NCBI GenBank assembly: GCA_964016885.1
Contig: CAXHJY010000565.1
Span: forward strand, 1-64,000
From: Eledone cirrhosa
Taxonomy: Eukaryota
Direction: 5' to 3'
DNA length: 64,000 nucleotides
A model generated the notes under the pieces. The model was not told the origin of the DNA, did not search any database, and was given only the letters and a program-made list of their open reading frames with translations. Made by a program: the position numbers and the translations under genes. How positions within the stretch are numbered: position 1 is the stretch's first letter; every line of letters begins with the position of its first letter. Of this stretch, positions 17,471 through 63,691 are shown piece after piece.

Positions 17471-18721
17471 GATTTCATTTATTAGCCACAAGGGCCGACA
17501 TGTGGGGACAATACAAAGACAGGGACAGTGGGGGTTTACAATAAGGTCGAGTAAAAGTGCACAATGGCAAGACTAATTTAACAATGAAAATATAAAAATA
17601 TAAAATAAACTATGCATAAATATAACAAAATAAATTCCCCGATAGGGGGTGGACGACCCTGGGGTGACTCGGGTACCCCACCAATCCTGAACGACCCTGC
17701 GCTTCTAGGGCACCCAGGGAGAGCACCCCTCTCCTCAAGTTAGCTAGCCTAGGTGCATGGTCAGAGTAGGCCCATTCACACGAGCCATTCTCGCCACATT
17801 CACCCACCTTTTAGCAAATGTACTGGGGGGCAGCACTTCTCTCCCCACCCTCACCTTCCTTTCCAGGTGAAACTTGAAGAAGTTGATGAGAGATTGGCCG
17901 AAGAGAAAAGTGTCTGTCTTCAGTCCTTTTAACCTGGTCCACCATATAACCTCTTTCGCAACTGCCACCAGACAGAGGAAAATTTCCTGCTCTTCCTGAC
18001 CTAAGGAAGGCGGTGGATCGATCTTCACTATGGACTCGGCCGATAGCCGGATTCGTTCCACACGCGACAGTAGCTGTTCGACATAACTCCACAAGTCAGT
18101 AATGCACGGACATTGGACAAGTGCGTGCAGAACGGTTTCGTCGTTCTGTGCGCATCTTGGGCAGGTCCGTCTGACAGCACTTCCGTGCCTGTAGAGTTTA
18201 TCTCGAACCGGCAGTGCCCCCCGGTAGCACTGCCAAGCGAGAGATTTCTGGAAATTGTCCATCGTCCCCGGCTCAAAAGTCCTCCGGTACAGACTGGTCA
18301 GTTCGTCGAGGCCCAAAGCTTCTCCGAGTGCGTCATCGCACTTGCCCACCACTAATCCTCTATAGAACTCGAGAGTGGAAGTTCCACTGATCGCATTGCC
18401 CGCTTGGTAGAGGGCAGTGAGTGCCTGGCAACATTCCAGATGCCAGTCACCCAGTCTCGGTCTCTTCTTGACCCAGGACTGCAGCTCAGTTAAAGAAATG
18501 AGCTGCGGAAAGGCCCGTCTGATAAACGGCGACCACACCTGTTCACCGTTGAGGCAGAATATCTGGAGATGTCTCAGCCTCAACGCATGTCTGCGCATCA
18601 TTAGCCACGGCATGCCCAGCCCTCCGCGTAGAGGGTGCTGCAGGCAGATGGACCGCCTCACCAACGGAACTTGTCCTCTCCACAAGATTTAGAAGAGGAG
18701 CCGTTCCAACGTGACGAGGCC
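17471..18721 (-). mobile_element. 5'-truncated Tx1/L1-clade retrotransposon
   Basis: ORF 17744-18685 with RGGLGMP and CPRC...ETVLHALVQC (zf-RVT-like). AATAAA then an (ATT)n tail. Absent from RTE copy 2. Confidence 0.9.
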
Positions 18722-18835
18722 AACAATAATAATAACGACAACAACAACAATAATAATATACATATACATATATATATATACACACACACACGCGCACACA
18801 TAAACATATCTATACACACACACACACGATAGCAA

Positions 18836-21800
18836 CTAACAGCGCTGCGATCGAATGTGGCTTTTTAGCCCAGCCAATGATCTAAAATGTCTTGCACAGA
18901 GTCGGCAACCAAAACATTCACTGGGAATAGCCGGCTGTGGTTGGAGTTCATGCACTTTTGCATGTCGCTTGAGCCCTCCTGCTGATTTACATTCTCTACC
19001 ACATGTTTGGCAAGCATGATGAGTAGTATCTCCAACAGCAGCCTGGTAGTCAACCACTGGTCTTACTTTATGACTGCGAAGATGACTTTCGAGTCCAGCT
19101 TTGCTTAGGCAGAGTCTCGCACAGACGTTGCAAGTCAGCACCATAGGAGGACCCTCGCCGTCTGGAAGTGCAACAGCAATGCCCTTCCTCACATCCCGCT
19201 TTACTTTCTCGTATGCGATTCGAGATGCCTCAAAAGCAACTTTTTCCTCATATACAGTCTTTCTCCATTTATAACGATCAGCAGCAATATTTTCCCATGT
19301 ATCAGCAGAGATGTTAGCGTCTTTCAAAGAGGCTTTCAAGGAATCCTTATACCTCTTTTTTGGTTTATGTGGCGGTCGTTTTCCTTTAACCAACTCTCCA
19401 TAAAAGAGTTGTTTTGGTATTCTAGAATCCTTCATCCTGGCAAGGTGACCACTCCAACGGAGTCGTTGCTTAAGCACAAGAGCTTCTATACTGTCACATC
19501 TAGAGCTTTCCAAAATCTCGACATCACTGATGTGGTCTCCCCCCAGTGAACGCCATGGATCCGTCTGAGACACATCTGATGGAAACGCTCCAATTGCTTA
19601 AGGTGGTGTCGATATGTGACCCAGGTCTCGCAGGCATAAAGAAGACAAGAGAGCACACATGCCTTGTACCTTTACCTTTGTCCTCCTGCATATGTCTCGC
19701 CGACCCCAGAGTCGCCTTTCTAGCTTTCCGAAAGCATCACTTGCTTTCCTAATCCTAAATGAGATTTCACTGTCAAGGTTGCTGTATCGATTGACAGTGC
19801 TTCCCAAGTAGACAAACTGATCAACCACTCCAAGTCGTTTACCATACACATAGATATTTGGTTCAGAGTACTGCTTACCAGGGGCAGGTTGGTACATGAC
19901 GACGGTTTTCTTGAGACTGACAGTCAATCCTAGGGCAGTGCAAGCGTCAGAAAATGCATTCAAAATGTGCTGCATATCACTCTCTGTGTGCGCTACAAGA
20001 TCGCAATCATCTTCATACAAGAGGTCTCTTATGATTGATGTAAATACTTTTGTCTTTGCGGCAAAGCGCCTGATGTTAAATATGCTGTCTGAGGTTCGAT
20101 ATCGGATGTAAACACCATGCTCGCAATTCCTGAATGCAATACAGAAAACCATTGCAAAGTATATGGCAAACAGGGTCGGTGCTGGAATATCCCCCTGTTT
20201 CACTCCATTTTTTACTGAGATAGGCTCCGACATGTTACCTCCGACATTAACCCAAGCCTTCATGTCGTCATGGAAAGACCTAACTAAAGCAAGGAACTTA
20301 TCAGGGCAACCAAGTTTCTGGAGAACCTTCCATAATGCATCTCTGTTAACAGTATCGAAAGCTTTTGTCAGATCGACAAAAACCTGATACAGATCCAAAC
20401 CTTGTTCCATGCACTTCTCCTGGGGCTGTCTAGCTGAGATCATATCAGTAGTGCCGCGTCCAGCACGAAAACCAGATTGACTTTCAGAGAGAACATAATC
20501 TGCATTGTGTGTCAGCAGACGGTCCAGAAGCACCCTACATAAAACTTTCCCTACGACAGAAAGCAATGATATAGCTCTATAGTTCCCACAATCATTCCTG
20601 TTACCCTTTCCCTTGTACAAGACCACCATTACTGCATCTCCCCAGTCCTCAGGTACAGATTCATTAGCCCATATCCTGCCAAACAAAGAGTGAAGATGTT
20701 GCAGGAGTCTCTCACCACCATATTGTAGGAGCTCAGCATGTATGCCATCCATACCTGGAGACCTTCCACTGTTCAGCTTCGAGATAGCCACTGCAACCTC
20801 CACAATCGTCGGAGGTTCTGCGAGAGCTACTTTCACAGGACTTTCTGGAATGAGATTGAGGAAATATTCACTGACGACAGACGGCTGATTCAAAAGATCA
20901 TCAAAGCGCTCTCGCCACCTTCGTAGAATTCCTTGTGAGTCACGAAGAAGTTCTTTGCCATCCTTGCTGCGAAGCGGTGTCACCAGAGAAGAAGACGGTT
21001 CATAAACCTCACGCAAGAGACTGTACAACAGCTTTGTGTTATTGGAATCTGACGCAGTTTGTATCTCACCAGCCTTCTCACTCCACCACTGATCCTTCAT
21101 CTGAGAAAGACTCCGCCTAACACGTGATTTTACATCCTTGAGTTCCTCATGCAACGTATTCCTCTCCTGTGGTTTTGCCGTCAAGTAGCGTGACAGAGCA
21201 CGCCTCTTATCAGCCAACAAGTCTTCTATATGTACATCATTCTCATTAAACCAGTCCTGATGTTTTCTCTGCACCAATCCCAGAACACGCCTGCCTACAT
21301 CATAAACCGACTTTTTAAGGGTCGGCCAATCCTCACCAAGATCTGTAGCCTGCATCTCTTCTTCCAATGTCCTCTTCACATTTTTATCCTTAAGACGAGC
21401 AGCATTCAATCTTTTGGGCAGGGCAACACCAGGAGCCCGGATTTTATGTTTAGTGGTTAGTTTCACTACTTGCGCGTACCAGGCGGTGGTCCGTCCAGCA
21501 CTCAGCTCCACGAAGAGCACGAACACACTGCACATCCTGTCTGTCACGCATCCTGACTAGGACGTAGTCCAAAAGATGCCATTCCTTAGATGCAGGATGC
21601 ATCCATGCGGTCTTGAATTTGTTCTTTTGTTGGAACATAGTGTTGGTAACACACAGATCCAGCTCCTCACGCATCTGCAGCAGAAGCATACCATTGTTGT
21701 TACACTTTCCCACCCCATGCCTTCCGATTACATTCCATGTGTTAAAATCCATACCCACTCTAGCATTAAAGTCACCAAGCACGATGACTTTGTCTGCCTG

Positions 21801-22361
21801 AGGGATATTTCTTAAAACACCTTTCAATGCATGGTAAAAGGACAGAATTCATAGTTGGAGCATACACACTCACCAGGGTCGCATATCTTCCTTTGTCCAG
21901 CGGAATTCTCATGGACATAAGACGCTCACTAATCCCTACTGGGAATTCTTCTAATTTATTCACAAGAACAGTCTTAACAGCAAATCCTACCCCAGCCTCT
22001 CTTCTGGTTCCTTCATCTCTTCCTTTCCAGAAGAATGTATATTCTCCACAAAATTCTGTAAGATGACCATCTCCAGCTAACCTCGTCTCAGATAAAGCCA
22101 CGATGTCAAGATCGTAACGTCGAAGCTCCTTTGCAACAAGAGCTGTCCTCATTCAGGACGCTCCAAGGAATCCCTGTCAAGCAACGTCCGTACGTTCCAG
22201 CAGCCAAGACTAAATGCCATGTTTGGCTCTACTACAATGGCACGATGACGAGCGGGCCCAGGCTGTGATAACCTGGGGCCCCTGCCCTTATTGCCAATGA
22301 TCTTTTTTGTTCCAGAACCTAAATTGCCAATTATCTCTTTTATATTGTTCTGAAACATCAT
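18836..22361 (-). pseudogene. Disrupted RTE ORF (APE endonuclease, RT, 3 C2H2 fingers)
   Basis: Pieces 22149-22361, 21772-22152, 21450-21827, 19598-21547 and 18836-19573. Stops, frameshifts and YADD>YEDD relative to copy 2. Confidence 0.95.
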
Positions 22362-22440
22362 TGAATTGGAAAAAAAATGACATACATACATACATACATA
22401 CATACATACATACATACATACATACATACATACATACATA

Positions 22441-25400
22441 AAATGGCAACCGTTGTGGTCAGTGTCCGATAATCGGACGTGTGTAATTACGGCTTACATG
22501 AAGGCAACATACCATATATTGGAAAAAGTTGAGCTACATTACGCAGTAAGATTACATACAATAATTCTACATAAGTGTTTGAACTGTAAGTGTGTTGTAA
22601 AACACCTATTTATATGAACGATACATACACTTATGATATATGAACGATACATACACTTTAACATATAAATGCAACGTTGTTATATTACATTTATAAAGAA
22701 ATATACAAGTAACGTTTTCGATTCAGAAACAAAAATATAAGTGTTTGAACTGTGAATATGTTGTGAATAGGTTGTAGAACACCTATTTATATGAATGATA
22801 CATAAACTTTAACATATAAATACAGCGTTGTTATATTATATTACATTCATAAAGGAATATACTAAGTAACGGTTCTTTTTGTTCTCGATTCAAACGATTC
22901 AAGAGCAACGTTTAAAACACAGTTGTAGAATTAAAAACTAACTGAAAAGAAATATTACTCAAGCTGTGAATAACTTTAAATTTGATTCTGACAGAACTTT
23001 GTCGTAACTTTTAAAGAAGATCATCGACTATTTTGAAAAATAAATACGAAATATTAGTGAATAGACGAACTCATCATGGCAAAAAGTACAAGTCTCCTTC
23101 GACCAAATCGCAATTACAACCGTTGTACACAGTGGAGCTACGAGCTTAACAAAGTATTATATGAAGCATACAAACAATCTGAACCCCAAAAGTTCGGTTT
23201 TATGCAAAGGCTAAAAACTTTATGGAACTCCAAACACCCAGAATTAGACTTTTCTCCAAAGCATTTAAATGAACAGGCAAAACGTATCATTAGATGTAAA
23301 TTATACATCTAACGGAATCGAGTGATACTACAAATACAGCCCTTGTAGACAACCACCCCACCTCCACTGACAGACAAAGAGAATGGCCAGCTAAATCTAA
23401 CAGTGAACAGCTCACCAACAATTTTGCTGAAATTCATCCCACTTCCACTGAAGAACAGCGAGAAAGGTCAGCTGACTCTAGTAGTAATTGTCACCACATC
23501 AACAACGAGGCTGAAATTCATGACTCTACTGAACAAACAGAGCACCAAAAACTTGTGGGCTCCCTACAAGTGATATGGAATGATATGTTTCAAGAGATAC
23601 ACAGCCTTAATGTGAGTGACAGACCATACAACACTAGAGTCAGTAAAGAACCCACTAAATTGGAATTGGAAGCGGTGAACGAAATAGCTGGCAATTATCT
23701 GAAGGCTATACGATCTAAAGGTATAGAAACGACATTTGAAACGCTTAATGTTTTGTTATATGTTTCAGCTGTCACATTGCTATCATATAACACACATCTA
23801 AAACCACGCAATCAAGATACAAACAGAAAGCCTGAACCAGCGTGGATGCGAAATTTAAAAACCAAAATTTTGTCCCTGAGACGAAGTATCTCACACATCG
23901 CAGTCGTTATGAAATGCAACATAGAGAGAAACTTCACACGACACCAGGAAGACCTAAAGAAAAAGTTAGAGAGAAGATTTGGAGATACAAAATTTAAAAC
24001 TTTGAACTCCAAATTACACCAGTTGAAACAACAACTCACAGCTACAACAGAAAGACTAAAATATAAGTCAACAGCACAAAAACGACAAGTGCTAAATAGA
24101 TTGTTTGCCAGAGATCCTAAATCAGTTTATCGCAGCTTCGGTGGCAAAAGCTCAATCTCTGTAAATGACACCCCTTCAAAAGAACAGGTTGAGAGCTACT
24201 GGAGATCTGTATGGGAAACGGATGACGGGTTCAACAGACAAGCTAATTGGCTAAAAGAACTGGAACAGGACTACTGCCAACATGTCCAGACAAAACAATA
24301 TGACATAGATGGGTCAATACTGGAAACAGCTCTACAGAAAATGTCGAATAGGAAATCGCCAGGCCCAGACCTCATTACAGGATACTGGTTGAAGAATTTC
24401 ACTTTCTATCGGCAAGATCTCATACGGCTGTTTACAGAAACCATTAAGGGCACACAAGAACTGCCCAGATGGTTATCAACTGCCTCTACTCTCCTCATTC
24501 CCAAAAATAGCCAAACCACCCTTGCTAAAAATTACCGCCCAATTGCCTGCCAAAACATCATGTATAAATTATATACTGGGTGCCTTAACCTGTTCTTACA
24601 GGATCACTGTGCTACCAACAACATCATAACACTTGAGCAAGCTGGTGGAAAGGGGGAGGTGTGGGGTTGCATAGATCACCTACTAACTAACAAAATGATT
24701 CAGGAAAAAACAACAAAGAATCGCAGAAACATGACTGTCGTGTGGCTGGACTATCAAAAAGCATTTGATAGTGTACCTCATGGGTGGATTGTTAAGGCTT
24801 TACAGTTAGCTAAAGTCCCACAACCATTGGTAGCTGCTGTTGAACGCCTGACCAAGAACTGGTACACCAGTTTGATCCTTAGAGGTGAGAAGGAGCAGGT
24901 TAAGACTGATAAGATACATTACCAGAAGGGCATCTTTCAGGGTGATAGCTTGTCAGTGCTACTCTTCGTTCTCTCACTGAATCCACTATCTTACCTACTC
25001 AGGAAATAAGGTGGACAAAGAAGTGGGACCAGAAGTATCTCCCATCTTTTCTTTGTTGATGACCTGAAGTTGTATGGGCCAAATATCAATGACATCAAGA
25101 AACAATTGGACCTCATTACACAATTTTCAACCGACATCAAAATGAAATTTGGTGAGTCCAAGTGTGCATATTTGGCAGTAAAACGTGGAAGAGCTGTGCC
25201 CTCCTCTAGAAATCTAGAGATGAACGGCCTGACAATACAACCTCTGCAGTCAGGTGACAACTACAGATATCTTGGACAGGATGAGAATGTCAGATATGAT
25301 GGACCCATAAATAAGGAGAGAACCAGAACTGAATACCTCAGAAGAGTAAAGAAAATATGGTCATCAGAACTGTCAGCATACAACAAATACATTGCCTACA

Positions 25401-26665
25401 ATACTTATGCTGTGCCAATTCTAACGCCAACATTTGGCCTACTGAACTGGTCATTGCAAGAACTAAGTGAGATGGATGTTAGAACTCGAAAACTTCTCAG
25501 TGTTACTGGGAACTTTAACATCAATGGTGATGTGGATAGGCTATACTTCTCACGCAAGGAAGGTGGCCGGGGTCTAAAATCAATATTAACAACATATGAG
25601 ACCCGGATAGTGACACTGAAGCAACACCTTCAACAGAGGAAAAAGGTTGGCAACCATCTTGCCCAGGTTTATGACCATGAAAAAAGAAATATCATTAGAA
25701 TAGCGACTGATCTGGAGGAGAGATATGGAATAAAGCCTGATATAAATCTCTCACTCAGAGAAATCGGAAGATCCTATTCAATGTTCAAACAAGATAAAAA
25801 AATTGACCAATTTACAGAAAAAGTTGTGCATGGATACTTGAGGCGTAAAACACAGACCATAGAGGGGATAAACCACTCAAAAAGCCTGGCATGGAGTTCC
25901 GACAAGTTTATGACATCACACCTTGAGGGATATCTCTATGCAATACAGGAACAAGAACTCCCTACCAAATATCTGCTGCACAAAAGAGGAGGGCCAGCAG
26001 CTGACAATAAATGTAGGCTATGTAAAACAAAGATCGAGGATGTAAGCCACATTGTTGCCAGCTGCGAAAGAATGTCATCTCGCTACTACCTCCCCATGAG
26101 ACACGATGGGATAGCTAGAACCATCTGGAACGCACTTCGGAAAACAAAATTAACAACAAACGAGGAAGAATATATTGAGACAGATGGCACTAAGGAATAC
26201 TGGTGGAACCTGAAAATAAAAACTGCCACCAAATTAAAGCACAACCGGCCTGATATTGTAGTTTGGGACCACACATTGAAAACGTGTTCTGTTGTGGAGA
26301 TCAGCTGCCCACTTGATGTAAACGTTGTCAGAAAAATACAGGAGAAGGAGGACATCTACGGACCATTGATGAGGAGTTTACAAATCCAGTATCCAAGATA
26401 CACCTTTAGCTTCATACCCATCATTATTGGTGCTACGGGTTATATACCAACCCGCTTGGACCAAAGTATGACTGAACTTGGATTTGCGGACAAAAAGCGC
26501 AGCTCCCTAATTCATAGTCTACAAATGGCTGCGATAGCTGGCACCTTCAAAATTTACAAAACATTCTTGCGATTCAAGGGATGACAATTTCTTTTCTTTT
26601 ACAACCTTGACACCAGGAAGGTGGCCGGTCAAAAAAATATACTCGAAATTAAGAGAAAGAGAAAA
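22441..26665 (+). mobile_element. Near-full-length R4/Dong-clade non-LTR retrotransposon (family A) in (CATA)n
   Basis: R4-type N-terminus (W..ELN...GFMQRLKTLW), RT (NYRPIAC, DYQKAFDS, QGDSLS, FVDD), CCHC knuckle CRLC...HIVASC, REL nuclease RHD...RPDIV...EISCP. Pure (CATA)n flanks. Confidence 0.93.
23076..26584 (+). pseudogene. R4-like RT-REL ORF with one frameshift (~23300-23310) and one in-frame TAA (25007-25009)
   Basis: ORFs 23555-25009 and 25070-26584 share a frame that is open back to ~23300. ORF 23076-23312 is in another frame. Confidence 0.9.
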
Positions 26666-26707
26666 CATACATACATACATACATACATACATACATACAT
26701 ACATACA

Positions 26708-26737
<30 letters not shown>

Positions 26738-26738
<1 letters not shown>

Positions 26739-27718
26739 GTAATATAGATAAGGAAAGTAGTCTAACTTGGACCAACAACCGCTATATTGGCTCCCACTTT
26801 GAAGGATACGCTTTTGCAATCCAAGAACAGGAGATTAACACGAAATACCTGATTCACAAAAGAGATAGGGATGCAGGCAAAACACCTAGATGTGATAACA
26901 AGTGCAGACTCTGCAGAACTAACATCGAGGATATCACCCATGTCATCAGCAGCTGTCCAAAGATGTCATCGCGGTACTATCTACCTATGAGGCATGATGT
27001 AGTGGCCAAAACACTGTACAATGCAGTTCGTAAAAAAGATAGCCCTGATAATAAACACATTAAAAGCTACAACAATGTGGAAGACATCCATGTACATAAT
27101 ATGAAAGAGTACTGGTGGAATGTTCCAGTAAAAACCCCAATAAAATGCAAGCATAACAGACCAGATATTATGATATGGGACAGGGAGAAGAAAACATGCA
27201 CAGTAGTGGAAATTAGCTGCCTAGCAGATGCCAATATAATGTCAAAGATTAGTGAAAAGGATAGTATTTATGCAGAACTGATGAGAAATCTGCAGATACT
27301 TCACCCTGATTACACCTTCAGATTTATGCCTGTGATTATTGAGGCACTTGGGTATGTTAGTAACTGCCTCAATACAAATCTTGAGAAGCTAGGCTTCACA
27401 GGAACAGAAAGAACACAACTAGTTAGGAAATTACAAGTACAATCCATTAATGGAACAGTAAAAATATGTAAATCATTCCAGAAATTTTGCATCTAATAAC
27501 TGCATGTACAGATGCAAAGCATATACACATGCACACATACAACTCAAAACATACACATCCACACATACAATAACATCCATATCTACACATGCATGCATAC
27601 ATACATATCTACCTAGTTGATGTTGTGTAAATTCCAATGAGAGAGTCTTGTGTCTATGTTAGAAACCGACTCTCTCTCTCTATTGGTAAAACTTTGTGAA
27701 ATTATAAAACCAGATGAA
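26738..27718 (+). mobile_element. R4/Dong-like family B, 5'-truncated (REL domain and 3' UTR)
   Basis: AIQEQEI, CRLC...HVISSC, RHD and NRPDIMIWD...EISC in ORF 26621-27496. Diverged from family A. Confidence 0.92.
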
Positions 27719-34809: not shown

Positions 34810-36203
34810 TTATACTTCTCTTAGGTCAGTGTTGTTTGTTTGGGTGTTGTTGTTATTCCATTCATTCTTTCTGTTTAGTCTTGGTCTTCTAATTTCTATT
34901 TCACTGGCCTCTCTGATTTGCCTATCTGCTGGGTCATTTCTATGTTTAGATATTATTCTAATTTCTATGTTGTCTATGTTACCGTCATGTTGTTGTCTAG
35001 CATGTTCGTATAGTCCTGACCCGTTTTTTCGTCCTTTTAGTTCCCCCCAGTGTTGGTCTATCCTTTCACCTATGCTACGAGCTGTCTCACCTATGTATGT
35101 TGTTGTCATGTTTCTGCAAGTACCCTCTGTACATCTTATGCTATAGACTACGTTTCTAGTTTTACAGTTTATCCGGGGGTTTACCTTACATATGATACAT
35201 TTCCTATTGGTACAGTGGGTTTTCTTAAAAGGGTAGGTTTTGCTGATCAGGGATTTTATGGTGGTTCCTGGCTTTTCTACCACCTTAATTTTTAAGTGGG
35301 TCTTTCTCAGGGCCTTTCTACACTGGTTAGCTAATTTCCCTCCAGGGGTAGCGTCCACAAACATGACACTCTGGTATCTCTGGTTGTCGTACCATGAGGT
35401 GGCTTTCCCTATCTTATGTCTAGCCCTATCTAAGCTATTCCATGATTTTCTCCTGTATAATGGGAAAATTCCTTTCATGTCCAGTTCTATGAGGGTCTTA
35501 TACTTCTCCATGGCTCCTTCGTATACTCTGACTCTGTCTCTTTGGTTTTAGCCAGAGAACTTCATGCGGTTGATGAAGTGTTGGATGTGTCTTTCCATTT
35601 CTGTTGGGTCGCACATGCGGGACACATTCTTCATCACTCGTACCAAATCTGCGATCAGAATATTAAAATTAGCACTACTGGACATTGCTGAGTATTTGGA
35701 GGCCATGGGTTTAGCATAGTGTCAGTGGAGAATTTGGGCTCTCTCGTCTATAGTGTTAATCCAGAGTTCTGTGTCTGATACAGGTAGTCTATTGTTAGGG
35801 TGTTTGGAAGGGAAGTCGATAGTTACAGTTATACTCTGGTGTATGGAATTAGCTATCTGCTGGATGTTTTCCATCGTGCTACGTTCTAAATCAAACTTGT
35901 TAGTGCTCTCTAGTGGGGGTGTTCTTATAACTATATTGATATCGTCTACATAACGAGAGTACATGATGAGGTCTATGGAGCTCTCATTAAGGAGATCTTT
36001 AAGTCTCCTTTCCCACCATACCATGAAAAGGTTGGCAACATCACCAGCTATGCTGACGCCGATAGCTGCTCCCTCATTTTGGGTGTAGATTTTCTCGTTG
36101 AACTTAAATATGTGGCCTTTTAAGGTAGTTTTGATATTGCATGTGCGACCATTTTTCTTACCTGATCATTGTTTTGGGGGGTCCGTATAGCTTTGGTCCA
36201 CCC
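34810..36203 (-). pseudogene. Disrupted PLE RT plus GIY-YIG endonuclease ORF
   Basis: ORFs 35722-36024 and 34810-35511 are separated by stops (ILH*HYAKPM, FSG*). Confidence 0.9.
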
Positions 36204-52796: not shown

Positions 52797-53183
52797 AACA
52801 GCAGCAATTACAGCAACAGCAGCAGTAACAATAGCAGCAACAACAACAGCAACAACAGCAGTAACAATAGCAGCAACAACAGCAGTAACAATAGCAGCAA
52901 CAACAGCAGTAACAATAGCAGCAACAACAGCAGTAACAATAGCAGCAACAACAGCAACAACAGCAGCAACAACAGAAGCAACAACAGTAGCAACAACAGC
53001 ACTAACAACAGCAGTAACAACAGCAGTAACAACAGCAGTAACAATAGCAGTAACAATAGCAGTAACAACAGCAGTAACAACAGCAGTAACAATAGCAGCA
53101 ACAACAGCAGCAACAACAGCAGCAACAACAGCAGCAACAACAGTAGCAACAACAGTAGCAAAAACAGCACTAACAACAGCAGT

Positions 53184-53218
<35 letters not shown>

Positions 53219-53790
53219 AAGCAATAATATCAGCAGCAATTACAACAACATCAGTAATTACAACAGCAGTAGCAACAACAGCAATTGCAACAACAGCAGC
53301 AACAATAACAACAGCAGCAACAACAGCAGCAGCAATTACAACAACAACAACAGCAGTAGTAATAACACCAGCAGCAGCAATAACAACAACAGCGGCAGCA
53401 ATAACAACAACAGTAGCAGCAACAACAGCAGCAACAACAGCAGCAGCAATAACAGCAACAGTAGCAACAACAACAGCAACAACATCGGCAGGAATTAAAA
53501 CAACAGCAGCAGCAATAACAACTATAGGAGCAGAAATAACAACAGCAACAGCAGTAGTAGTAACATCATCAGCAACAACAGCACAACAACACCAGCAACA
53601 AATACAACAACAGCATCAACAACAAGAACAGCAACAGCAGTAAGAACATCAGCAACATCAGCAACAATAACAACAACAGCACCAGCAATAACAATAACAG
53701 CAGCAACAGCAATAACAACATCAGCAGTAGTAGTAACAACATCAGCAACAACAGCACAAAACTATCAGCAACAAATACAGCAGCAACACC
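52797..53790. repeat. Degenerate (CAA/CAG/TAA/TAG)n triplet repeat with 12-bp periodicity
   Basis: Directly visible. Confidence 0.93.
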
Positions 53791-55202
53791 AATGACAACG
53801 GCAGCAACACCAGCACAACACCAACAGAATCAACAACAACAACAAACAGCAATAACAACAACAGCAGCAACACCAGCACAACACCAACAGAATCAACAAC
53901 AACAACAAACAGCAATAACAACAACGGCAGCAACACCAGCACAACACCAACAGAATCAACAACAACAACAAACAGCAATAACAACAACAGCAGCAACACC
54001 AGCACAATACCAACAGAATCAACAACAACAAACAGCAATAACAACAACGGCAGCAACACCAGCACAACACCAACAGAATCAACAACAACAAACAGCAATA
54101 ACAACAACGGCAGCAACACCAGCACAACACCAACAGAATCAACAACAACAACAAACAGCAATAACAACAACGGCAGCAACACCAGCACAACACCAACAGA
54201 ATCAACAACAACAACAAACAGCAATAACAACAACGGCAGCAACACCAGCACAACACCAACAGAATCAACAACAACAACAAACAGCAATAACAACAACGGC
54301 AGCAACACCAGCACAACACCAACAGAATCAACAACAACAACAAACAGCAATAACAACAACGGCAGCAACACCAGCACAACACCAACAGAATCAACAACAA
54401 CAACAAACAGCAATAACAACAACGGCAGCAACACCAGCACAACACCAACAGAATCAACAACAACAACAAACAGCAATAACAACAACGGCAGCAACACCAG
54501 CACAACACCAACAGAATCAACAACAACAACAAACAGCAATAACAACAACAGCAGCAACACCAGCACAATACCAACAGAATCAACAACAACAACAAACAGC
54601 AATAACAACAACGGCAGCAACACCAGCACAACACCAACAGAATCAACAACAACAACAAACAGCAATAACAACAACAGCAGCAACACCAGCACAATACCAA
54701 CAGAATCAACAACAACAACAAACAGCAATAACAACAACGGCAGCAACACCAGCACAACACCAACAGAATCAACAACAACAACAAACAGCAATAACAACAA
54801 CAGCAGCAACACCAGCACAATACCAACAGAATCAACAACAACAACAAACAGCAATAACAACAACGGCAGCAACACCAGCACAACACCAACAGAATCAACA
54901 ACAACAACAAACAGCAATAACAACAACGGCAGCAACACCAGCACAACACCAACAGAATCAACAACAACAACAAACAGCAATAACAACAACGGCAGCAACA
55001 CCAGCACAACACCAACAGAATCAACAACAACAACAAACAGCAATAACAACAACGGCAGCAACACCAGCACAACACCAACAGAATCAACAACAACAACAAA
55101 CAGCAATAACAACAACGGCAGCAACACCAGCACAACACCAACAGAATCAACAACAACAACAAACAGCAATAACAACAACAGCAGCAACACCAGCACAATA
55201 CC
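53790..55202. repeat. 63-bp tandem minisatellite, about 22 copies
   Basis: Unit ACAACAACGGCAGCAACACCAGCACAACACCAACAGAATCAACAACAACAACAAACAGCAATA. Two units are 60 bp. Confidence 0.97.
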
Positions 55203-56137: not shown

Positions 56138-56743
56138 ATGGTGGCTGCCAACTCGTTTTCGAGTACGGCCACTACTTTATATCCATGTAGAACCCCTACC
56201 GGTGCGCTGAACGAGTGTGGCTTTTTAGTCCAGCCAGCGACTTGAAAACTCTGGTACAAACACTACACTTGTGACAATTATTGACACATAGTGCTGGGCC
56301 CATGGTACCCTGTGACGACAAGTGCAGAGAGATCTCCAGATATAAAACAATGCCTGTTCCGTGAAGCTTTTATAGTGAGCAAAGGCACTGCACAAAGCCA
56401 GTCCCACTCTCTTAACCAAGATGATATTTACCAAAAAGAAGAACATGTCAACATCATTGGATACCATCAGAGTTGCAGGTGTTATATCAGAGTTTTCCTT
56501 CTCCTAGAATTCTGCCCTGACAAAGGCTAAGGGGTCATCTCTCCCGGTGATTTTGGATGGCCATTGACTCTTAAGTGCTCCTTTGCCCTTTGACAGGTTT
56601 TGTTTTTAGTCCTGCAGGATGTCCAAAGTCACCCTCCTCACCAAGAAACCTTGGTGGGGTTGCCAGTTTAGTCGCCAACGACCCGACCATGAGACAGGTT
56701 GTACTGGGATACATGTTACCAGTTGCACCAACTGGTGACCTGA
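56138..56743 (-). mobile_element. Non-autonomous bipartite RTE derivative, full length (~605 bp)
   Basis: Same 5' end TCAGGTCACCAG as 57943-58550. (ATGT)n tail. Confidence 0.9.
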
Positions 56744-56819
56744 CATGCAAAAAAAAAATACATACATACATACATACATACATACATACATACATACATA
56801 CATACATACATACATACTT

Positions 56820-57942: not shown

Positions 57943-58550
57943 ATGGTGGCTGCCAACTCGTTTTCGAGTACGGCCACTACTTTATATCCATGTAGGAGAA
58001 CCCTTACCGATGCGCTGAACGAGTGTGACTTTTTAGTCCAGCCAGCGACTTGAAAACTCTGGTACAAACACTACACTTGTGACAATTATTGACACATAGT
58101 GCTGGGCCCATGGTACCATGTGAGGACAAGTGCAGAGAGATCTCCAGATATAAAACCATGCCTGTGCCGTTAAGCTTTTATAGTGAGCAAAGGCACTGCA
58201 CAAAGCCAGTCCCACTCTCTTAACCAAGATGATATTTACCAAAAAGAAGAACAAGTCAACATCATTGGATACCATCAGGGTTGCAGGTGTTATATCAGTG
58301 TTTTCCTTCTCCTAGAATTCTGCCTTGACAAAGGCTAAGGAGTCATCTCTCCCGGTGATTTTGGATGGCCATTGACTCTTAAGAGCTCTTTGCCCTTTGA
58401 CAGGTTTTGTTTTTAGTCCTGCAGGATGTCCAAAGTCACCCTCCTCACCAAGAAACCTTGGTGGGGTTGCCAGTTTAGTCGCCAACGACCCGACCATGAG
58501 ACAGGTTGTACTGGGATACATGTTACCAGTAGCACCAACTGGTGACCTGA
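57943..58550 (-). mobile_element. Non-autonomous bipartite RTE derivative, full length
   Basis: RTE-like 5' UTR joined to a C2H2 remnant (CSVCTRVFKSLAGLKSHTRSAHR*) and the RTE 3' stem-loop. Confidence 0.9.
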
Positions 58551-58667
58551 CATACATACATACATACATACATACATACATACATACATACATACATACA
58601 TACGTACGTACGTACGTACGTACATACATACATACATACATACATACATACATACATACATACATAC

Positions 58668-58733
58668 ATGATGGCTGCCCCCTCGTTATCGAGTATGGCC
58701 ATTGCACAATAAAAAAAAAAAAAAAAAAAAAAA

Positions 58734-58787
<54 letters not shown>

Positions 58788-58812
58788 AAAAAAAAAAAAA
58801 AAAAGGGAAAAG

Positions 58813-58845
<33 letters not shown>

Positions 58846-58967
58846 TATACACATATATATATATACACATATATATACACACACACATACATACACATAC
58901 ATACATATATACACACACACATACATACACATACACTCACACATATATACACACATACATTAATAAC

Positions 58968-59007
<40 letters not shown>

Positions 59008-59086
59008 GCAATAATAATAATAACGACAACAACAATAATAATATACATATTCATATATATATACACACACACGCACGCACATAAGC

Positions 59087-59124
<38 letters not shown>

Positions 59125-62100
59125 GATAGCAACTAACAGTGCTGCGATCGAATGTGGCTTTTTAGCCCAGCCAATGATCTAAAATGTCTTGCACAGAGTC
59201 GGCAACCAAAACATTTACTGGGAATAGTCGGCTGTGGTTGGAGTTCGTGTACTTTTGCATGTCGCTTGAGTCCTCCTGCTGATTTACATTCTCTACCACA
59301 TGTTTGGCAAGCATGATGAGTAGCATCTCCAACAGCAGCCTGGTAGTCAACCACTGGTCTTACTTTATGACTGCGAAGATGACTTTCGAGTCCAGCTTTG
59401 CTTAGGCAGAGTCTCGCACAGACGCTGCATGTCAGAAACATAGGAGGACCCTCGCCGTCTGGAAGTGCAACAGCAATACCCTTCCTCACGTCCCGCCTTA
59501 CTTTCTCGTGTGCGATTCGAGATGCCTCAAAGGCAACTTTTCCCTCATATACAGTCTTTCTCCATTTACTACGATCAGCAGCAATATTTTCCCATGTATC
59601 AGCAGAGATGTTAGCGTCTCTCAGAGAGGCCTTCAAGGAATCCTTATACCTCTTTTTTGGTTTATGTGGCGGTCGTTTTCCTTTAACCAACTCTCCATAG
59701 AAGAGTTGTTTTGGTATTCTAGAATCCTTCATCCTGGCAAGGTGACCACTCCAACGGAGTCGCTGCTTAAGCACAAGAGCTTCTATACTGTCACACATAG
59801 AGCTTTCCAAAATCTCGACATCACTGATGTGGTCCCTCCAGTGAACGCCATGTATCCGTCTGAGACACATCTGATGGAAACGCTCCAATTGCTTAAGGTG
59901 GCGTCAATATGTGACCCAGGTCTCGCAGGCATAAAGAAGACAAGAGAGTACACATGCCCTGTACACCCTTACCTTTGTCCTCCTGCATATGTCTCGCCGA
60001 CCCCAGAGTCGCCTTTCTAGCTTTCCGAAAGCATCACTTGCTTTCCTAATCCTAAGTGAGATTTCACTGTCAAGGTTGCCGTATCGATTGACAGTGCTTC
60101 CCAGGTAGACAAACTGATCAACCACTCCAAGTCGTTTGCCATACACATAGATGTTTGGTTCAGTGTACTGCCTACCAGGTGCAGGTTGGTACATGACGAC
60201 GGTTTTCTTGAGACTGACAGTCAAACCCAGGGCAGTGCAAGCGTCAGAAAATACATTCAAAATGTGCTGCATATCACTCTCTGTGTGCGCTACAAGATCG
60301 CAATCATCTGCATACAAGAGGTCTCTTATGACTGATGTAAATACTTTTGTCTTCGCAGCAAAGCGCCTGATGTTAAATATGCTGCCTGAGGTTCGATATC
60401 GGATGTAAACACCATGCTCGCAATTCCTGAATGCAACACAGAAAACCATTGCAAAGTATATGGCAAACAGGGTCGGTGCTGGAATATCCCCCTGTTTCAC
60501 TCCATTTTTTACTGAGATAGGCTCCGACATGTTACCTCCGACATTAACCCAAGCCTTCATGTCGTCATGGAAAGACCTAACTAAAGCAAGGAACCTATCA
60601 GGGCAACCAAGTTTCTGGAGAACCTTCCATAATGCATCTCTGTTGACAGTATCGAAAGCCTTTGTCAGATCGACAAAAACCTGATACAGATCCAAGCCCT
60701 GTTCAATGCACTTCTCCTGGAGCTGTCTAGCTGAGAAGATCATATCAGTAGTGCCGCGTCCAACACGAAAACCAGATTGACTTTCAGGAAGGACACAATC
60801 TGCAATGTGTGTCAGCAGACGGTCCAGAAGCACCCTACATAAAACTTTCCCCACGACAGAAAGCAATGATATACCTCTGTAGTTCCCACAATCATTCCTG
60901 TTACCCTTTCCCTTGTACAAGACCACCATTACTGCATCTCTCCAGTCCTCAGGCACGGATTCATTAGCCCATATCCTTCCAAACAGAGAGTGAAGATGTT
61001 GCAGGAGTCTCTCACCACCATATTGCAGGAGCTCAGCATGTATGCCATCCATACCTGGAGATCTTCCACTGTTCAGCTTCGAAATAGCCACTGCAACCTC
61101 CACAAGTGTCGGAGGTTCTGCGAGAGCTACTTTCACAGGACTTTCCGGAATGAGATTGAGGAAATCTTCACTGACGACAGACGGCTGACTCAAAAGATCA
61201 TCAAAGTGCTCTCGCCACCTTCGTAGAATTCCCTGTGAGTCACGAAGAAGCTCTTTGCCATCCCTGCTGCGAATCGGTGTCACCAGAGAAGAAGACGGTC
61301 CATAAACCTCACGCAAGAGACTGTACAACAGCTTTGTGTTATTGCAATCAGACGCAGTTTGTATCTCACCAGCCTTCTCACTCCACCACTGATCCTTCAT
61401 CTGAGAAAGACTCCGCCTAACACGTGATTTTACATCCCTCAGCTCCTCATGCAACGTATTCCTCTCCTGTGGTTTTGCCGTCAAGTAGCGTGACAGAGCG
61501 CGCCTCTTATCAGCCAACAAGTCATCTATATGCACATCTTTCTCATTAAACCAGTCCTGATGCTTTCTCTGCACCAATCCCAGAACACGTCTGCCTACAT
61601 CATAAACCGACTTTTTAAGGGTCGGCCAATCCTCACCAAGATCTGCAGCCTGCATCTCTTCTTCCAATGTCCTCTTCACATTTTTATCCTTAAGACGAGC
61701 AGCATTCAATCTTTTGGGCAGGGTAACACCAGGAGCCCGGATTTTACGTTTGGTGATTAGATTCACTTTTGCGCGTACCAGGCGGTGGTCCGTCCAGCAC
61801 TCAGCTCCACGAAGAACACGAACACACTGCACATCCTGTCTGTCACGCATCCTGACTAGGACGTAGTCCAAAAGATGCCATTCCTTAGATGCAGGATGCA
61901 TCCATGTGGTCTTGAATTTGTTCTTTTGTTGGAACATGGTGTTGGTAACACACAGATCCAGCTCCTCACACATCTGCAGCAAGAGCATACCATTGCTGTT
62001 ACACTTTCCCACCCCATGCCTTCCGATTACATTCCATGTGTTAAAATCCCTACCCACTCTAGCATTAAAGTCACCAAGCACGATGACTTTGTCTGCCTGA

Positions 62101-62686
62101 GGGATATTTCTTAAAACACCTTTCAAGGCATGGTAAAAGGACAGTTTTTCTTCATCGACAGAATTCATAGTTGGAGCATACACACCCACCAGGGTAGCAT
62201 ATCTTCCCTTGTCCAGCGGAACTCTCATGGACATAAGACGCTCACTAATCCCCACTGGGAATTCTTCTAATTTATTCACCAGTACAGTCTTAACAGCAAA
62301 TCCTACCCCAGCCTCTCTTCTGGTTCCTTCATCTCTTCCTTTCCAGAAGAATGTATATTCTCCACAAAATTCCGTAAGATGACCATCTCCAGCTAACCTC
62401 GTCTCAGACAAAGCCACGATGTCAAGATCGTAACGTCGAAGCTCCCTCGCAACAAGAGCGGTCCTTCGTTCAGGACGCTCCAAAGAATCCCTGTCAAGCA
62501 GCGTCCGTACGTTCCAGCAGCCAAGACTAAATGCCCTGTTTGGCTCTATTACAATGGCACGATGACGGGCGGGCCCAGGTTGTGATAACTTGGGGCCCCT
62601 GCCCTTATTGCCAATGATCCTTTTTGTTCCAGAACCCAAATTGGCAATTATCTCGTTTACATTGTTCTGGAACATCATTGAATTGG

Positions 62687-62724
<38 letters not shown>

Positions 62725-62729
62725 TAATA

Positions 62730-62764
<35 letters not shown>

Positions 62765-63067
62765 ACACTATTAATAATTATTAATGCACTCGTGCAATGC
62801 CTGTGCGTGACGAATATTTTTAAAGTGAGGAAAGACTGTGCACTGAACCAATCCCACTCTCTGAGCGACAGTAGCTATAACCCGAAAAGAAGAAAAGATC
62901 AACATCATCGGTAACTACTGAGCCGCAGGTTTTATATCGGAGTTAACCCAGTTTCCTGAGATGCCTTCTCCTAGAAGAATACCCTGACATGGGCTAGGGG
63001 TTCTTCACTCCCAGTGGTTTAACTGCGCGATCGGGCATCCAGCCCGATTATTTCTATGTCCCCGCGC
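58668..63067 (-). mobile_element. RTE-clade LINE, copy 2, including much of the 5' UTR
   Basis: 924-aa and 251-aa in-frame ORFs. The 5' UTR (62790-63067) is homologous to the non-autonomous derivatives. (CATA)n flanks. Confidence 0.97.
59133..62678 (-). CDS. RTE polyprotein (APE, RT with YADD, 3 C2H2 fingers), ~1181 aa, one in-frame TGA at 59904-59906
   Basis: The two ORFs are in the same frame. Copy 1 has CGA at the stop position. Confidence 0.93.
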
Positions 63068-63139
63068 AAAAAAAAAAAAAAAAAAATACACATACATACA
63101 TACATACATACATACATACATACATACGTACGTACATAC

Positions 63140-63681
63140 ATGGCATTACATGATAATGCAACTTGATTTCGAGTAATGCCATCGCTTGATACTTAAGCAT
63201 AAGCATCACGGGCGCGGCATTTGAATGATGCTAGGGACCTGCCAATGGCCAGCAATACCATGCATCGCAAAAATTATCACATATCAAGCGATACCCATGC
63301 TTGACGTTTTTTTAAGTGAGGAAATGGTTTGCACGGGGCCAATCCCACTCTCTGTACATTAAATGCATTTGCCCAAAAAGAAGAACTGGTCTACATCATT
63401 GGATGCAAATGAAGTCGCAGGTTTTATATTAGAATGACCTTCTCCTTGAGTGATGTCTTAATGAAAACTAGGAGTCTCTCGCTCCACAGAAAAAACCTTT
63501 ATTGGATGGCCGTTGACTTCCCTGGGTTCCTCCACCCTTTCACAGGTTTTACTGTTCATCCCGCAGTATGTCCAAAATCACCCTCCTCAACAAGCAAGCT
63601 TGGTGGGGTTGCCGGTTTAGTCGCCGACAACCCGACCATGCACAAGTTGTACTGGGTTACATGTTACCAGTAGCGACCTGA
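63140..63681 (-). mobile_element. Second, diverged family of non-autonomous RTE derivative
   Basis: 5' TCAGGTCGCTACTGGTAACATG..., RTE-type 5' UTR motifs, 3' CTCGAAATCAAG stem-loop, ATGT tail. Confidence 0.8.
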
Positions 63682-63691
63682 CGTACATACA

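Follow-up and report, generated by a model that had tools for sequence, protein, structure and literature searches.

Several families of RTE retrotransposons and five other LINE clades carry self-cleaving ribozymes at their 5' ends (PMC3774820; PMC5786205; PMC6765202; papers are cited throughout for the accessible part of their text). HDV-like ribozymes consist of five helices arranged in a double pseudoknot (PMC3774820). RTE elements have been described as lacking promoters of their own; they are transcribed within introns or downstream of other elements and are released by their ribozymes (PMC6765202). Active RTEs encoding C2H2 fingers are known from octopus, in two papers whose accessible parts do not mention ribozymes (PMC9115989; PMC13282606). 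Bipartite non-autonomous RTEs include Bov-A, RTESINE1/2 and WALLSI3 (PMC5786205), for which the accessible text of the papers searched describes no 5' xrRNA.

A different way of delimiting an RNA 5' end is found in flaviviruses, whose xrRNAs halt Xrn1 about 5 nt upstream of helix P1 (PMC7749634). In subclass 1a, P1 has five Watson-Crick pairs, P3 has four to eight, and a U·A-U triple is formed (PMC7749634). A single C is conserved between P2 and P3 (PMC7527734), and this J2/3 C is likewise part of a definition in which pseudoknot 2 spans 2-7 bp (PMC8571300). The Zika xrRNA contains the contacts G3:C44, U4·A24:U42 and A37:U51, with a stem, P4, downstream (PMC11929477). P1 is fixed and P2 highly variable, and mosquito-borne xrRNAs are near-invariant at the junction, where they have exclusively C-G pairs (PMC13161572). 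According to the accessible text of a 2021 review, xrRNAs had so far been characterised in viruses only and cellular xrRNAs were an open goal (PMC8374639); that of a further paper mentions no cellular case (PMC12397905). Putative xrRNAs have been reported in some marine invertebrate flaviviruses (PMC8128465).

Here we describe a motif at the 5' ends of retrotransposons, first seen in a 64,000-nt stretch of DNA from Eledone cirrhosa (the window), whose genome is a microsatellite-rich animal genome of 3.0 Gb. To judge from the letters, the first 60 bases match the flavivirus subclass 1a xrRNA in every part visible in sequence, two U-A junction pairs aside. The motif probably functions in an xrRNA-like manner, as a candidate block to 5'-3' exonucleases. 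Unlike the flaviviral elements, it is DNA-encoded and lies at a retrotransposon 5' end instead of in a viral 3' UTR, and its resistance has the standing of a candidate property.

Carrier elements and their LINEs

The carrier of the motif is a non-autonomous element of about 610 nt (Table 1), composed of a LINE 5' end and a LINE 3' end, with no ORF and with a microsatellite tail. Its 5' part, 193 nt long, is 88% like the start of an autonomous element elsewhere in the genome (L263), and its terminal 33-nt stretch is 85% like the 3' end of the LINE in the window. By its sequence the carrier, made of LINE ends only and lacking an ORF, has the layout of the bipartite non-autonomous RTEs Bov-A, RTESINE1/2 and WALLSI3 (PMC5786205). 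Unlike in Bov-A-type elements, its 5' module is held in common with a LINE whose protein is 25% identical to that of the window RTE. The window contains two more copies. In the one starting at 56747, a private T-to-A change breaks the first P3 pair. The element at 63685-63150 is 74% identical to the 610-nt elements over 369 nt; its P2-less state has just two matches in the genome, and P2 loss was dropped as a family trait.

The window LINE and L263 each have a single ORF with an APE endonuclease and a reverse transcriptase (RT), followed by a microsatellite tail; we infer from this architecture alone that these LINEs belong to the RTE clade. The RT used by the short elements likely comes from the window LINE. 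The motif is missing from this copy, which starts with a different leader. That leader (63076-62960, minus strand) is itself structured, with a GCGCG/CGCGC stem around an ATCGGGC/GCCCGAT hairpin; its start is identical in six loci, and related copies include L004, L025, L209, L267 and L306. The middle region of the 5' UTR of the window LINE and its relatives is common with the xrRNA-led elements, and leaders therefore seem to have been swapped between LINEs. A second copy of the window LINE (18724-22377, minus strand) is 5'-truncated and 95% identical.

Table 1. Carrier elements and parts of the leader motif, with positions in the window
Feature	Position	Strand	Evidence or remark
Bipartite non-autonomous element, ~610 nt	57945..58554	-	blastn; 60 full-length copies examined
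Second copy, same family as the 58554 element	56139..56747	-	97% identity; R1 model score 90.4 bits
Copy of a different subfamily, P2 deleted	63150..63685	-	R1 model score 66.7 bits
RTE-type LINE: endonuclease, RT, C2H2 fingers; one in-frame stop	58669..63076	-	Pfam PF03372, PF00078, C2H2
TAT leader, putative opening triplet of the element RNA	58552..58554	-	Places the 5' end 5 nt before P1
G and U, equivalents of Zika xrRNA G3 (pseudoknot 1) and U4 (base triple)	58550..58551	-	Sequence; RF01415 alignment; PMC11929477 (accessible part)
P1, 5 bp, CAGGT (58549-58545)/ACCTG (58506-58502), closes the three-way junction	58502..58549	-	97.4% of cells paired, no two-sided change; in 60-nt MFE
P2 hairpin CACC-agtt-GGTG, subfamily-specific sequence	58533..58544	-	115 of 123 copies keep at least 4 pairs
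Single C between P2 and P3 (J2/3), subclass 1a discriminator	58532	-	Sequence; PMC7527734, PMC8571300 (accessible parts); kept in the diverged second motif
P3, 6 bp, TACTGG (58531-58526)/CCAGTA (58514-58509), 11-nt loop L3	58509..58531	-	96.2% paired
J3/1 CA, its C forming pseudoknot 1 with G58551	58507..58508	-	Invariant, second motif included
Pseudoknot 2, 4 bp, L3 CATG (58522-58519)/CATG (58498-58495), 3 nt after P1	58495..58522	-	94.8% paired
Bulged hairpin directly after pseudoknot 2 (hairpin plus CTAA)	58469..58494	-	81-84% paired, mostly wobble variation
Second downstream hairpin, variable loop	58436..58467	-	Subfamilies differ at two pairs, with both partners changed (7 and 12 rows)

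Architecture of the leader

P1, P2 and P3 together form a three-way junction within a core that spans 58495-58554 on the minus strand. The second pair of P3 is the A-U pair that serves as partner in the base triple; at G58551-C and at the triple bases, G-C or G-U and A-U pairing is found in 38 of 39 rows. The helices listed in a preliminary description of this DNA are all present in the sequence at 58549-58436 (minus strand), but the list was incomplete: P2 (CACC/GGTG, 58544-58533) had been overlooked, and it is lost in the third copy on which that description drew. The element start had been placed at TCAGGTC. This word is preceded by the G at 58551, and TAT (58554-58552) also belongs to the template; a G stands before TCAGG in 32 matches from 30 loci, found with GTCAGG-anchored patterns of which the G is part.

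The minimum free energy (MFE) structure of the 60-nt core is the three-way junction in the window copy and in two other loci (L203 and L246) and not in a third (L191), and folding z-scores are unremarkable (-0.1 to -2.6, six sequences). In a context of 120 nt, the MFE structure pairs the 5' strand of P1/P2 with a far hairpin, a long-range alternative. With alignment A3, where one family's P2 is out of register, RNAalifold did not predict this helix. A descriptor that fixed nothing but the tertiary bases of the architecture had matches in 35 of 20,000 dinucleotide shuffles of the region; within the window it found two of the three copies and four other distinct places, three of them AT-rich.

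Resemblance to flavivirus subclass 1a xrRNAs

An Rfam scan of 307 bases around the motif returned as its best match RF01415, Flavivirus_SLIV (Flavivirus 3'UTR stem loop IV), at 58556-58485. From its structure line and the papers, we read this family as the subclass 1a xrRNA. The window copy scores 23.4 bits (E 0.059) and L215 scores 29.6 bits (E 0.0029), with 24.5 and about 29 bits in further scans; scores overall lie at 23-30 bits, all below the gathering cut-off of 54.5 bits. A search of the 3-Gb genome, in which 64 of 216,717 candidates were scored, returned three matches with this model, and all three are motif copies. The alignments flag no non-canonical pairs, and two C-G pairs of the viral model, the inner P1 pair and the first P3 pair, are U-A here, with both sides changed. 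Pattern searches of the genome found no C-G junction variants. The motif is not filed in RF01415, given its scores below the cut-off, its U-A junction pairs and its candidate resistance.

The model leaves the two pseudoknots and the triple unscored as pairs, yet their bases are in place: equivalents of G3:C44, U4·A24:U42 and A37:U51 are present, together with the J2/3 C and a 4-bp pseudoknot 2. As in the mosquito-borne subclass 1a xrRNAs, such as Zika xrRNA1 and MVE xrRNA2, a 5-bp P1, a variable P2 and a 6-bp P3, within the 4-8 bp of the subclass, surround a three-way junction. The J2/3 C occurs in all rows of alignments A1 and A4, though a C at this position was part of most search patterns. 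Pseudoknot 1, a G-C pair, and the triple are recognised by bases at equivalent positions, without covariation. Pseudoknot 2, formed by L3 with the strand that follows P1 by three bases, lies within the range of 2-7 bp. A hairpin follows the core in both cases, and the RNA end lies about 5 nt before P1, a position derived for the motif indirectly from DNA junctions.

That this likeness arose by chance, and that conservation reflects recent common ancestry of the copies only, is most improbable, although several results agree with it. The Rfam scores stay below the cut-off, with E values of 0.003-0.06, and RF01415 has weak matches, likewise below the cut-off, in 7 of 14 control genomes. The invariance of the core could also stem from ancestry, and the search patterns selected for the core. 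On the other hand, the tertiary bases and the halt distance fit as well, although Rfam scores neither, and the pattern of change among copies described below also speaks against it.

Distribution of the motif

A DNA similarity search of the genome returned nothing, its words being too common, and patterns were used instead. The core pattern has 11,860 exact matches in the genome, against none for a reversed control. Patterns with other P2 types gave 1,464 matches, overlapping with the first set, and 126, partly in tandem arrays. The preliminary description was right to see in the motif a conserved RNA with a pseudoknot, placed at the very 5' end of elements of RTE type. The motif is far beyond chance, though the three window copies, two of which are 97% identical and the third P2-less, are a weak basis for its conservation.

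The motif leads two autonomous LINE families as well as non-coding derivatives. In L263 and L264 it heads an element with endonuclease and RT, whose ORF starts about 1.1 kb downstream and whose protein is 44-65% identical to that of the window LINE in larger blocks. In L372 it heads a second autonomous LINE with an open frame of 1,049 aa and 25% protein identity to the window LINE. Motif elements are often inserted beside one another, and inverted partial leader copies occur near the 3' end of L263 (L263:1421-1495, plus strand) and upstream of L264. Tandem arrays of the motif alone were also seen (G000:C2:221059432-221061226, which is L231; L224-L230; G000:C15:169588-170792), built of 59-nt and roughly 95-102-nt units.

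Outside this genome, a 1,061-nt contig of run X5 has the same core with an intact 5' strand of P1 and a longer, unrelated P2 region that pairs, as read from 30 letters. The core lies 241 nt into this contig, which is ten times deeper than the main family; it may be another family with an internal second motif. The long-P2 variant is absent from the genome of the window, as searched. A pattern scan of metagenomes gave, among the matches listed (at least 118 stretches), only chance-like ones with none near a LINE ORF, and the same holds for the 36 matches in viral contigs. A covariance model, R1, built from the core, was run on 92 outside loci, made up of the 36 viral and 33 GTDB loci in full and 23 of the at least 118 from metagenomes; its best match there had E 0.65. 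Related LINE proteins gave 1,401 matches on contigs of about 4 kb, without clade names. The 33 loci from prokaryotic bins (L308-L340) encode LINE-type RTs. The descriptor matched once in them, weakly and in AT-rich sequence, and the only locus that is both close and long (L311) is 5'-truncated. Several of these loci are clearly eukaryotic contamination, for example L311, with introns and microsatellites.

Sequence variation and compensation

In an alignment of 39 distinct copies, 89.0% of the cells pair, against 28-44% with slid partners. Changes on both sides of a pair occupy 35 cells, against 15.9 in shuffles, relatedness being uncorrected, and fall in P2 and in the hairpins downstream. The two pseudoknots, P1 and P3 are invariant in this set, with 95-97% of their cells paired. 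For P1, pseudoknot 1 and the triple, no change on both sides was seen in this genome, and such invariant pairs carry no weight as evidence for structure. Patterns for compensated variants of P3 and P1 gave 0, 0 and 0 matches genome-wide, and a long-P2 variant pattern gave one, a local duplication.

P2 is the part of the core that varies. The copies in which it keeps at least four pairs (Table 1) do so with CACC/GGTG, CACT/AGTG, CGCT/AGTG or CAGGC/GCCTG, counted outside in. Among four subfamily majorities, none of 32 paired core columns differs, as against 9 of the 17 columns without pairing. The search patterns prescribed the 5' half of the core, and the 3' half was free in the searches with other P2 types; among 35 new copies with a free 3' half, the exact 3' strand is kept for P3 in 31, for J3/1 in 33, for P1 in 23 and for pseudoknot 2 in 26. 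With P1 fixed and P2 free, variation in the core thus follows the viral pattern (PMC13161572).

A weak match of model R1 in L216 led to a family with a second, diverged motif 262 nt downstream of the first, which accounts for 93 of 100 matches. It is found at L372:473-600 and in L341-L370, in two P2 length variants and with a downstream hairpin of its own. One pair of its P3 is A-U in place of G-C, and its pseudoknot 2 is CTGG/CCAG in place of CATG/CATG, with two pairs changed on both sides. Three of the ten pairs of P3 and pseudoknot 2 are accordingly changed on both sides in this one family, and none is broken. The J2/3 C, the triple pair, the CA and the 3-nt linker are kept. The second motif has neither a fitting 5' strand of P1 nor the G-U start, and is therefore no complete xrRNA itself; we infer that it is a remnant of an older leader. 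At the level of sequence, its compensation, from one family and three events at most, is the best evidence for a real pseudoknot 2. The avoidance of paired columns, the rebuilding of P2 in four ways and the double compensation in pseudoknot 2 all argue against a chance likeness.

The 5' boundary of the template

Copies of the element sit in repeats of alternating purines and pyrimidines, so that the junction can be read as a break in phase. The junction set comprised the 66 of 139 junctions in such a context, with the AGGC subfamily left out. At the step -4/-3 before the G, 18 of the 66 junctions break phase, against 2-7 at seven other steps (Fisher P = 2e-7 for -4/-3 against six other steps). 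Fresh loci replicated this, with breaks at -4/-3 in 17 of 48 kept junctions (of 64 new ones) against 1-7 (P = 8e-10). The three bases before the G are TAT in 28 of 35 informative junctions; one copy (L020) has a 14-bp target site duplication (TSD) followed by TAT. The microsatellites leave the mapping of TSDs ambiguous in most cases. Anchored TSDs of at least 10 bases were found in 34 of 60 full-length copies: 15 end within 2 nt of the G, five leave 3-4 extra bases, 13 leave 6-25 bases and one runs into a neighbouring copy. Read from these junctions, the 5' end of the template lies five bases before P1, which is where viral xrRNAs bring Xrn1 to a halt.

TAT is preceded by G in 25 of 79 cases, as compared with about half in the flanks; there is no excess of G, and hence no sign of a copied cap. 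L1 elements often show such an extra G, copied from the cap, at their 5' end. Among the 28 copies of the family picked out through its second motif, 14 reach full length; of the 14 truncated ones, 11 end within nt 4-60 and not within 61-262, a cluster which suggests that a stable fold makes RT stall.

Both cleavage and exonuclease halting would agree with a sharp 5' end that appears uncapped, and several related elements carry ribozymes at this place. The preliminary description had proposed a candidate self-cleaving or leader RNA, possibly HDV-like; in the self-cleaving reading, a variant HDV or new ribozyme would cut just before TAT and free the element from host transcripts. This now appears very unlikely. 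Rfam scans of three copies, a check which that description had itself proposed, gave RF01415 as the best match and no ribozyme family at E<=10 or at the gathering score. An HDV descriptor, used without a positive control, fitted none of nine copies strictly and one of nine when relaxed, and the nested double pseudoknot with P1, P1.1, P2, P3/L3, P4 and the J4/2 C was not found in them. The earlier remark that the fold differs from the canonical HDV ribozyme was correct, whereas its comparison of the hairpin plus CTAA with HDV P4-J4/2 is not supported: the hairpin lies downstream of a complete xrRNA-type core, like flaviviral P4 (PMC11929477). The element ends in a U that is unpaired and lies five bases ahead of its first helix, and the xrRNA model accounts for all conserved bases. 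P1 of HDV-like ribozymes, by contrast, starts at the cleavage site with a G. Twister and hammerhead were also dropped, as no core words of either occur in the copies, and a hatchet fit, weighed against the general features of that class, was set aside.

A second alternative is a structured leader with another task: an internal Pol II promoter would start transcription at TAT, and the fold would bind the LINE protein or help translation, with no block to exonucleases. The fixed TAT start would suit a promoter, the passage of the leader to another LINE family resembles promoter capture, and the knot may be weakened by its U-A junction pairs. Pol II is thought to transcribe bipartite non-autonomous LINEs, which retain their 5' end (PMC5786205), and the first 77 nt of L1Tc act both as promoter and as ribozyme (PMC3383444). 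However, a DNA promoter leaves the two-sided changes in P2, P3 and pseudoknot 2 unexplained, the start lies at the distance at which Xrn1 halts, no excess of cap-derived G precedes TAT, and the motif is kept in non-coding derivatives, which speaks against a role in translation only. RTE elements have moreover been described without promoters of their own (PMC6765202). We regard this alternative as unlikely, though less so than a ribozyme. A promoter and an xrRNA are compatible with each other.

Proposed function of the knot

The xrRNA-like reading gives the leader the following part in the life cycle. The ring-knot fold likely forms as in the flavivirus xrRNA. The element would be transcribed inside a longer host transcript, in an intron or by read-through, or would lose its cap; a 5'-3' exonuclease, XRN1 or XRN2, would degrade the upstream RNA and halt at the knot, five bases before P1. 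The product would be a stable, uncapped, full-length element RNA, and the LINE protein would reverse-transcribe this protected RNA as its template. Most likely the candidate knot protects the element RNA at its 5' end, and it probably also defines that end. The DNA fits both formation of the 5' end by trimming and its formation by a promoter, in which case the knot would guard the RNA once it is decapped, and does not tell the two apart.

The motif shares its position with the HDV-like ribozymes of RTE, R2 and L1Tc (PMC6765202; PMC3774820), and likely their purpose too, a defined uncapped 5' end freed from a longer transcript; blocking of an exonuclease would here do the job done in those elements by cleavage. 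Like these ribozymes, it is found on autonomous and non-autonomous copies. The two differ in fold, with no fit to P1/P1.1/P3-L3 found in the motif, and in that the motif would depend on an exonuclease of the host, with a 5'-phosphate instead of a 5'-OH as the resulting end.

Origin and implications

In a literature search of accessible texts, with most subscription papers outside its reach, no natural xrRNA came up for any retrotransposon or eukaryotic genome. Viral xrRNAs have been placed in cellular transcripts, where they protect uncapped mRNA in yeast (10.1101/2020.06.25.169177) or serve to impede XRN2 (10.1101/2021.07.09.451826). Such engineered mRNAs are artificial and contain viral sequence, whereas the motif would be natural. 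More tentatively, and with slightly less than even confidence, we propose the following as a whole: that the motif is the first natural non-viral xrRNA; that trimming by XRN1 or XRN2 is a third route to a LINE 5' end, next to internal promoters and self-cleaving ribozymes; that the module has been swapped between distant LINEs and stands in tandem with a diverged second copy, like the tandem copies of flaviviruses; and that it shares ancestry with the flaviviral 1a element through exchange of RNA between viruses and retrotransposons. An exchange of the motif with a virus is conceivable; the alternative is convergence on the same 20-odd bases.

The motif is 60 nt long, each of its predicted contacts can be mutated, and the exact base of the halt is predicted. 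If confirmed, a nuclease roadblock of viral type would exist outside viruses, on more than 10,000 retrotransposon copies in one genome, and LINEs without promoters would have a new way of maturing their RNA. More than 13,000 potential exonuclease roadblocks would then lie in introns and read-through transcripts of one animal genome, where they might affect RNA decay and termination by XRN2, and the question of a common origin of the flaviviral element and the retrotransposon motif would be raised.

Other repeats in the window

The window contains further repeats. At 23300-27496 (plus strand), RT frames are followed by a restriction-like endonuclease region, and a second partial copy is present; the arrangement resembles an element of R2/R4 type. 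Fragments at 17744-18688 and 34810-35547 (both minus strand) presumably correspond to an L1/Tx1 C-terminus and a Penelope GIY-YIG region. A 63-bp tandem repeat occupies 52833-55202, with 22 copies at 98% identity in its younger part and long, low-complexity open frames.
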